A stretch of 64,000 nucleotides of DNA from Escherichia coli (GTDB taxonomy: Bacteria; Pseudomonadota; Gammaproteobacteria; Enterobacterales; Enterobacteriaceae). The position numbers and the translations under genes were made by a program. The stretch is taken from the NCBI RefSeq assembly GCF_024223415.1, contig NZ_CP100500.1; one strand, given 5' to 3'. Under the pieces are notes generated by a model. That model saw only the letters and a list, made by a program, of their open reading frames with translations, ran no database searches and was not told where the DNA came from. This document shows, piece by piece, positions 37,065-61,835 of the stretch; within the stretch, counting starts at the first letter, position 1, and each line of letters opens with the position of its first letter.

Positions 37065-37247
37065 GAAAGCATACGGGCGATGACAAATGCAAAACTGCCT
37101 GATGCGCTACGCTTATCATGCCTACAAAGATGCACGATCGAGTAGGCGGGATAAGGCGTTTACGCCGCATCCGGCATGGAAAACGCGTACTTTGTTATCA
37201 ATCTGGGGCCAGCAAATGCTGGCCTGATTTGTTCTTGAGGGAAGACT

Positions 37248-39305: not shown

Positions 39306-40313
39306 GTGAAAAAGCAATGGATTGTTGGCACGGCGCTGCTTATGTTGATGACTGGTAATGTCTGGGCAGATGGCGAACCGCCAACTGAAAATATCTTAAA
39401 AGATCAATTCAAAAAGCAGTATCACGGCATTCTCAAGCTTGATGCTATCACCTTAAAAAATCTTGATGCTAAGGGTAATCAGGCCACCTGGTCAGCGGAA
39501 GGCGATGTCTCTTCCAATGACGATCTCTATACCTGGGTCGGTCAGTTGGCAGATTACGAACTGCTCGAACAGACCTGGACGAAAGATAAAGCGGTAAAAT
39601 TCTCGGCGATGTTAACCAGTAAAGGAACGCCCGCGTCTGGCTGGTCGGTGAACTTTTACTCTTTTCAGGCGGCAGCCAGCGATCGTGGGCGGGTGGTCGA
39701 CGATATCAAAACGAATAATAAATATCTGATCGTGAATAGCGAAGATTTCAATTATCGCTTTAGTCAGCTTGAATCTGCGTTGAATACCCAGAAGAACTCG
39801 ATTCCTGCGCTGGAAAAGGAAGTGAAAGCGCTTGATAAGCAAATGGTGGCGGCGCAGAAAGCAGCGGATGCATATTGGGGAAAAGATGCAAACGGTAAGC
39901 AAATGACCCGCGAAGACGCCTTTAAAAAAATTCACCAACAGCGTGATGAGTTTAATAAACAGAACGATAGCGAGGCGTTCGCGGTTAAATATGACAAAGA
40001 GGTTTATCAACCGGCGATTGCGGCATGTCATAAACAGAGTGAAGAGTGTTATGAAGTGCCGATTCAGCAGAAACGAGATTTCGATATCAACGAACAACGG
40101 CGACAGACTTTTCTGCAATCACAAAAACTTAGCCGTAAATTGCAGGATGACTGGATAACGCTCGAAAAAGGGCAATATCCGCTAACGATGAAAGTTTCAG
40201 AAATAAACAGTAAAAAAGTCGCGATTTTGATGAAAATTGACGATATCAACCAGGCTAATGAACGCTGGAAAAAAGATACCGAACAACTGCGGCGCAATGG
40301 GGTGATTAAGTAA
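39306..40313 (+). CDS. yggM: DUF1202 protein YggM
   Basis: 335 aa with signal peptide. Confidence 0.8.
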   Translation: MKKQWIVGTALLMLMTGNVWADGEPPTENILKDQFKKQYHGILKLDAITLKNLDAKGNQATWSAEGDVSSNDDLYTWVGQLADYELLEQTWTKDKAVKFSAMLTSKGTPASGWSVNFYSFQAAASDRGRVVDDIKTNNKYLIVNSEDFNYRFSQLESALNTQKNSIPALEKEVKALDKQMVAAQKAADAYWGKDANGKQMTREDAFKKIHQQRDEFNKQNDSEAFAVKYDKEVYQPAIAACHKQSEECYEVPIQQKRDFDINEQRRQTFLQSQKLSRKLQDDWITLEKGQYPLTMKVSEINSKKVAILMKIDDINQANERWKKDTEQLRRNGVIK

Positions 40314-40329
40314 GTTTTGATATAGCGCA

Positions 40330-40550
40330 CGATTTGTAGCAGGATGCGGCGTTGACCCCGCATCCGGCAATCAACGTCTGATGCGACGCTAGCGCGTCTT
40401 ATCAGACCTACAACAGCTGCCACATGTCGGCTGAGGTGCTCACGCCGCATCCGGCAATCAACGTCTGATGCGACGCTTGCGCGTCTTATCAGACCTACAA
40501 CCGTTGCCACATGTAGGCTGGATAAGGCGTTCACGCCGCATCCGGCAATA
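40330..40550. repeat. REP/palindromic-unit cluster with a tandemly duplicated ~80-bp unit
   Basis: unit CGCATCCGGCAATCAACGTCTGATGCGACGCT.GCGCGTCTTATCAGACCTACAAC...TGCCACATGT.GGCTG occurs twice back to back. Confidence 0.8.
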
Positions 40551-40555
40551 CAAGT

Positions 40556-56974: not shown

Positions 56975-57077
<103 letters not shown>

Positions 57078-57754: not shown

Positions 57755-58605
<851 letters not shown>

Positions 58606-61689: not shown

Positions 61690-61800
<111 letters not shown>

Positions 61801-61835
61801 GCATCAGGCAGTTTTGCTTTTGCCATCACTCTCAA

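Follow-up and report, generated by a model that had tools for sequence, protein, structure and literature searches.

A probable BIME-2 array of five REP hairpins between the convergent genes yggM and hemW of Escherichia coli and its copy-number alleles

BIME-2 elements are composed of alternating y and z2 REPs that are separated by short linkers and occur in tandem copies, and the number of copies at a locus depends on the strain (PMC3333891). Such arrays and their variation in copy number between strains have been known since the 1990s, and the roles published for the REP family include those of transcript stabilizer and protein-binding site (PMC3333891, PMC6379681, PMC12306157). REP325, located between yjdM and yjdN, contains six units of a Y-linker-Z2 type, and it is on this unit that the Rfam model naRNA4 (RF02564) was built. 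The BIME-1, RIB, or RIP elements are intergenic REP pairs found in 3′ regions; they combine Y and Z1 REPs with a long L linker that binds IHF. Here we compare with these systems a tandem repeat lying between yggM and hemW in a 64-kb stretch of Escherichia coli DNA, the whole of which is referred to as the window. This repeat is very probably a BIME-2 made of five alternating Y and Z2 REP hairpins, with one Z2-Y unit more than the three-REP allele of K-12. It is thus an ordinary member of an already known kind of E. coli intergenic repeat, and the locus behaves as expected for its family.

The yggM open reading frame extends from 39306 to 40313 on the plus strand (stop codon at 40311-40313) and that of hemW from 40556 to 41692 on the minus strand (stop codon at 40556-40558). 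Both names are those annotated by RefSeq in a genome with 100% identity and in K-12 MG1655, in agreement with the location given in the first-pass annotation of this DNA. The two genes are convergent, and the array (40336-40547) lies wholly between their stop codons, in a gap of 242 bp (40314-40555). The first-pass annotation had described two near-identical copies of a ~80-bp REP-containing unit, placed back to back. That the repeat is in tandem was borne out by Tandem Repeats Finder, which reported for 40358-40549 a period of 87, 2.2 copies, 90% matches, and a score of 310. It was also borne out by an ungapped 87-nt direct repeat (40342-40428 versus 40429-40515) with 77 of 87 positions identical (89%). 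The binomial tail for this identity at a fixed offset is 1e-35, and 4e-28 once corrected over all positions and all offsets up to 500. The same search returned a three-copy family of 33 nt, as well as short hairpin arms within each element. However, the unit measures 87 or 91 bp rather than ~80 bp, and the two copies are only part of the array, which consists of a founder Y and two Z2-Y units. Alignment of the copies confirmed that they are colinear, but "near-identical" was an overstatement: the units have mismatches at 11% of positions and a 4-nt indel, and the Y of the first one has lost 4 nt, carries GTCG, and is no more stable as a hairpin than shuffled sequence. The NC_000913 annotation table has no repeat_region feature in the yggM-hemW gap, and a literature search combining yggM and REP found nothing relevant.

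The strand of a REP was defined as the one on which 5′-GTAG comes first. With this convention, the order of the elements, each 31-36 nt long, is Y′, Z2, Y, Z2, Y, that is, the founder Y′ followed by unit 1 (40372-40458, plus strand, 87 nt) and unit 2 (40459-40549, plus strand, 91 nt), both built of a linker, a Z2, a second linker, and a Y. After a 22-nt spacer that follows the yggM stop codon (40314-40335), Y′ (40336-40369, plus strand) starts with GTAG and continues as an imperfect palindrome, GTAGCAGGATGCGGCGTTGACCCCGCATCCGGCA. Its match to the Y consensus is partial, and it forms a DNA hairpin of −11.2 kcal/mol (z −3.7). Y′ is common to all K-12-type E. coli alleles with one, three, or five REPs, and the single REP that other Escherichia species have is its ortholog. 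It is joined head to head, through the linker ATCAAC (40370-40375), to the first Z2 (40376-40411, minus strand); this linker has 6 nt, which is 6 nt shorter than that of the Rfam naRNA4 consensus. The first Z2 reads GTCTGATGCGACGCTAGCGCGTCTTATCAGACCTAC on the plus strand, ends with CTAC, matches the Z2 consensus at 94% over 34 nt, and has a hairpin of −10.0 kcal/mol (z −4.0). The tail-to-tail linker AACAGCTGCCACAT (40412-40425, 14 nt) leads to the middle Y (40426-40456, plus strand), a decayed copy that reads GTCG instead of GTAG and lacks 4 nt. Its match to the Y consensus is limited to the 16-nt head, and its hairpin of −6.3 kcal/mol (z −0.8) was equalled by 50 of 200 shuffles. The array continues with a second head-to-head ATCAAC linker (40457-40462, 6 nt) and the second Z2 (40463-40498, minus strand), which ends with CTAC, matches the Z2 consensus at 94%, and folds at −10.0 kcal/mol (z −5.0). 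Finally, the tail-to-tail linker AACCGTTGCCACAT (40499-40512, 14 nt) precedes the last Y (40513-40547, plus strand), GTAGGCTGGATAAGGCGTTCACGCCGCATCCGGCA, composed of GTAG and a palindrome, with 97% identity to the Y consensus over 34 nt and a hairpin of −9.0 kcal/mol. A spacer of 8 nt (40548-40555) separates it from the hemW stop codon; on the hemW mRNA, the last Y is thus found 8 nt past the stop.

Single-stranded DNA folding gave hairpins of −9 to −11.2 kcal/mol, with z scores of −2.7 to −5.0, for all five REPs but the middle Y. The GTAG foot is likewise kept in four of the five, at 40336, at 40513, and on the minus strand of both Z2 REPs, where it is read as CTAC at 40408-40411 and 40495-40498. 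Folded as RNA, the whole array is far more stable than its shuffled versions on the plus strand (z −7.0) and on the minus strand (z −6.0).

The REPs were typed by a blastn-short comparison of the Y, Z1, and Z2 consensus sequences with the window, in which the Z2 REPs matched at 94% and the Y REPs at 90-100% of the aligned part, on alternating strands. The consensus sequences used are those of Gilson and Bachellier, and this typing is a lead rather than the result of a tool. Rfam provides tool-based support that is independent of these consensus sequences. The naRNA4 model matches 40425-40495 on the plus strand, in the sense of yggM, with 63.0 bits (E 4e-11; the gathering score is 59.5), and the other Y-linker-Z2 unit, at 40338-40408, with 58.8 bits, just under that score. 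Both hairpins are present in the alignment, and a change in the Z2 stem from G:C to A:U is compensated. As for the repetition expected of a REP family, related sequence is found by megablast at a median of ~31 places per genome, and ~20 REP-like matches lie within the 64-kb window.

Like a typical BIME-2, the array is extragenic, located between convergent genes, arranged in tandem with alternating Y and Z2 REPs, free of an IHF site, and variable in copy number, so that the BIME-like nature proposed in the first-pass annotation can be narrowed to BIME-2. Compared with the BIME-2 consensus, the Z2 stem is GTCTGAT...ATCAGAC instead of GCCTGAT...ATCAGGC, a compensated change, and the middle Y carries GTCG; nothing essential differs. 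With REP325, the array shares the two-hairpin Y-linker-Z2 unit on the sense strand of the upstream gene, but it is located between yggM and hemW and not yjdM and yjdN, has two units and not six, and its Y-Z2 linker is 6 nt shorter. The IHF consensus WATCAANNNNTTR is absent within 40314-40555, which excludes BIME-1. More generally, an assignment to BIME-1, RIB, or RIP was rejected: the REPs beside Y are Z2 and not Z1, and the linkers have 6 or 14 nt, with neither an L linker nor an IHF site. A CRISPR-like array was also rejected, as the units are contiguous and lack unique spacers.

The first-pass annotation had proposed comparing the copy number at this locus across strains, and this comparison identified the extra unit as a copy-number variant. 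In alignments, the length classes of the gap correspond to clean alleles with one, three, or five REPs and shared flanks. Among 5,426 complete E. coli genomes, the five-REP allele of this window (gap of 242 or 241 bp) is present in 447 (8%), counted by a 96-nt junction that is exclusive to it, and many of these are O157:H7. The shares of the other classes were obtained by subtraction and are estimates among the matches listed, whose number was capped in 1,893 records: about 2,351 genomes (43%) for the three-REP allele, as in K-12 (gap of 154 bp), about 1,110 (20%) for the one-REP allele, as in A37 and O145 (gap of 63 or 68 bp), and about 1,517 (28%) for genomes such as strain 746, which have no REP and a TRAP operon in the gap. 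They derive from the genomes in which, among the matches listed, at least 80% of a query was covered, namely, 2,798 for a 601-nt query (three- and five-REP alleles together) and 3,908 for a 1,501-nt query (any REP allele). An even sample of 59 chromosomes, with 6, 25, 12, and 16 carrying five, three, one, and no REP, respectively, agrees with these estimates; alleles with seven or more REPs were absent from these 59 chromosomes. The allele series offers a clean natural set for studying the effects of REP copy number, and the five-REP allele, at ~8% of complete genomes, is usable as a strain-typing marker.

In the genomes with no REP left, a three-gene TRAP-transporter operon of ~3.2 kb replaces the whole gap. 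The break points of this allele coincide exactly with the stop codons of the two genes, yggM and hemW, and the 3′ end of hemW has diverged; examples are loci L003 to L007 (e.g., L007 1271-4473) and L015. In this allele, classical AT-flanked hairpins are found after yggM and after hemW. We also observed two contigs, one of 289 bp assigned to Caballeronia mineralivorans (L017) and one of 3.3 kb from a Bacillota metagenome-assembled genome (L018), that encode partial sequences with 97-100% identity to E. coli YggM; both contigs most likely represent E. coli contamination of these assemblies.

A single Y REP occupies the orthologous site in E. albertii, E. whittamii, Escherichia sp. E1V33, and the species of SCPM-O-B-8794, and Escherichia sp. 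MOD1-EC7003 has the TRAP allele. The single REP of the sister species is thus likely the ancestral state, with the Z2-Y units gained inside E. coli. Between Escherichia species, one arm of the single ancestral REP carries substitutions that the other arm does not compensate, and its hairpin is therefore not obviously under selection. The 91-nt segment that separates the three-REP from the one-REP allele has the head of the Y REP, CCGCATCCGGCAAT, as a direct repeat at its two borders. By their junctions, the three-REP alleles are of two kinds. The K-12 type (K-12, GB089, 50579417, and AST20) is a hybrid with the linker and GTCG of unit 1 and the remainder of the Y of unit 2; the hemW-proximal Y of K-12 (L001 8404-8558) reads GTCG and not GTAG. 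The MS6193 type (L020) corresponds to unit 2 entire. The existence of two junction types points to more than one change in unit number, in different registers, as expected from recombination or slippage between repeats. A single deletion converts the five-REP allele into that of K-12, whereas the reverse takes a duplication, several substitutions, and an indel; the three-REP allele may have been duplicated to five REPs, or the five-REP allele may have been reduced to three.

Unit number would change by homologous or unequal recombination, or by replication slippage, between the repeated blocks, and it is possible that TnpA-REP (RAYT) aids this turnover. TnpA-REP cleaves and recombines BIMEs in vitro, where it requires GTAG and a stem mismatch (PMC3333891), and these are kept by four of the five REPs of the array. 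Based on the in vitro data on GTAG mutants, the Y REPs with GTCG, namely, the middle one here and the hemW-proximal one in K-12, are predicted to be left unbound by the enzyme. Unlike a REPtron, the array has no adjoining tnpA-REP gene.

From a functional perspective, we infer what the array might do from its REP/BIME-2 family alone. At the DNA level, the cruciform-prone Y and Z2 palindromes are candidate sites for gyrase binding and cleavage, and convergent transcription of yggM and hemW would pile up positive supercoils in the gap, where gyrase would act. Gyrase cleavage sites are strongly over-represented in BIME-2, mostly in the Y loops, with Y cut more than Z2, and cleavage there persists when transcription is blocked (PMC6379681). 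The genes yggM, hemW, yggW, and yggR are not named in the accessible portions of the Sutormin 2019 gyrase-site supplements. At the RNA level, the array would give both transcripts a strongly folded 3′ end with no U-tract terminator, which may block 3′ exonucleases. Indeed, the combination of stable folds on both strands and the lack of a classical terminator implies that both mRNAs would end in, or run through, these hairpins, whose kind is reported to shield transcripts from 3′ exonucleases. At the level of translation, ribosomes are reported to stall at REPs located at most 15 nt from a stop codon (Liang 2015, as summarized in PMC12306157). The hairpin of the last Y, located 8 nt after the hemW stop, falls within this range and could stall terminating ribosomes, and a REP at this hemW-proximal 8-nt position is kept in the one-, three-, and five-REP alleles.

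The extra Z2-Y unit itself is probably close to neutral. Healthy lineages have zero, one, three, or five REPs, the middle Y has decayed, the changes in the ancestral REP between species are uncompensated, and the outermost spacing is the same in all REP alleles. In addition, the ~28% of genomes with no REP in the gap argue against an important local role.

The position of the array, exactly between two convergent stop codons in a gap with no other terminator, raises the question of whether it is a bidirectional terminator for yggM and hemW, whose strength would be increased by the duplication. The very stable folds on both strands fit this explanation. However, we consider it rather unlikely, as none of the hairpins precedes a T/U run, and the classical AT-flanked hairpins are instead those of the TRAP allele. 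A search for intrinsic terminators, defined as a GC-rich hairpin with a T run directly after it, found none within 40314-40555 on either strand, and an identity as such a terminator was accordingly rejected. Reportedly (Espeli et al. 2001), BIMEs attenuate transcription only partially, which also counts against termination as the role of the array.

Still less probable is that the units are naRNA4-like noncoding RNA genes, with read-through from yggM being processed to Y-Z2 RNAs of ~71 nt. Like the RNA described for REP325, they would associate with HU and link DNA cruciforms. The two RF02564 matches, of 63.0 and 58.8 bits, are in the sense of yggM, with intact hairpins and the compensated Z2 change. 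Moreover, Qian et al. report that ~80% of REPs are transcribed and that, for DNA condensation with HU, the RNA needs two hairpins such as Y and Z2 (PMC4550694). Against this, the locus is not REP325, the linker is 6 nt shorter, the middle Y hairpin is decayed in the very unit that scores best, no sigma-70 promoter was found in the yggM-hemW gap, and about half of E. coli genomes have either no array or just one REP. Since the model fits any BIME-2 unit, its matches indicate membership in the repeat family rather than an RNA function. The same caution holds for other naRNA4 matches in Rfam, which flag any BIME-2 unit and identify no specific small RNA gene.

One could also imagine that the gap is a recombination hot spot, occupied by a single REP, a BIME-2, or a TRAP operon, and that the number of units tunes gyrase loading between the convergent genes, the amount of a naRNA-like, HU-binding RNA made from the yggM 3′ UTR, or the output of HemW by way of the hairpin 8 nt past its stop. 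We regard this as very improbable; if true, it would make the five-REP allele typical of O157:H7 a functional variant and not a neutral one. Finally, although the two units are adjacent and colinear, a private and recent slippage duplication of unique intergenic DNA, or an assembly artefact, outside any repeat family is refuted to near certainty by the occurrence of the allele in 447 independent complete genomes, by the 11% difference and 4-nt indel between units, and by the recurrence of the unit 4.4 kb away and of related sequence at a median of ~31 places per genome.

The first-pass annotation had noted a single copy of the family at 44.87-45.0 kb, and it is indeed there: a single Z2-Y unit at 44906-44996 (plus strand) with a Z2 at 44910-44945, a linker at 44946-44959, and a Y at 44960-44994. 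Aligned with unit 2, it departs from it at only 3 of the 91 positions (97-98% identity), and partial naRNA4 matches of 44.5 and 33.3 bits were obtained at this locus. The unit lies between yggR and ruvX, which are also convergent, and is preceded in the gap by a short Z1-like REP (44869-44896, minus strand), a partial match to the Z1 consensus with a hairpin of −6.7 kcal/mol (z −3.5). This Z1-like REP starts 9 nt past the yggR stop codon and is therefore also within the 15-nt range reported for ribosome stalling at termination (PMC12306157). In a sample of 50 genomes, the length of the yggR/ruvX locus differs among strains, but not by whole units.

The two loci also have different distributions as segments. 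Among 5,426 genomes, only 7 share the yggR-ruvX segment (44450-45450) at 99% identity or more; K-12 and O157-like strains both match it at 96.9%. The yggM-hemW segment (39700-41200), 4 kb off, has at least 99% identity in hundreds of genomes, including O157:H7. This contrast suggests that the region is a recombination mosaic in this strain.

Within the 64-kb window, Z2-type REPs are confined to the yggM/hemW and yggR/ruvX loci. Other REPs are of different composition. At 61714-61809, a Y and a Z1 REP are joined tail to tail by an AT-rich linker of 35 nt, AAGATCGTGCAAATTCAATATATTGCAGGAAGTAT; this pair looks like a BIME-1/RIP element, although an exact IHF consensus was not matched in it. A Z1/Y pair with the same tail-to-tail arrangement and a 16-nt linker is present at 37097-37175, and single or paired Y REPs are also found at 51022-51043, 57013-57069, and 58562-58593.
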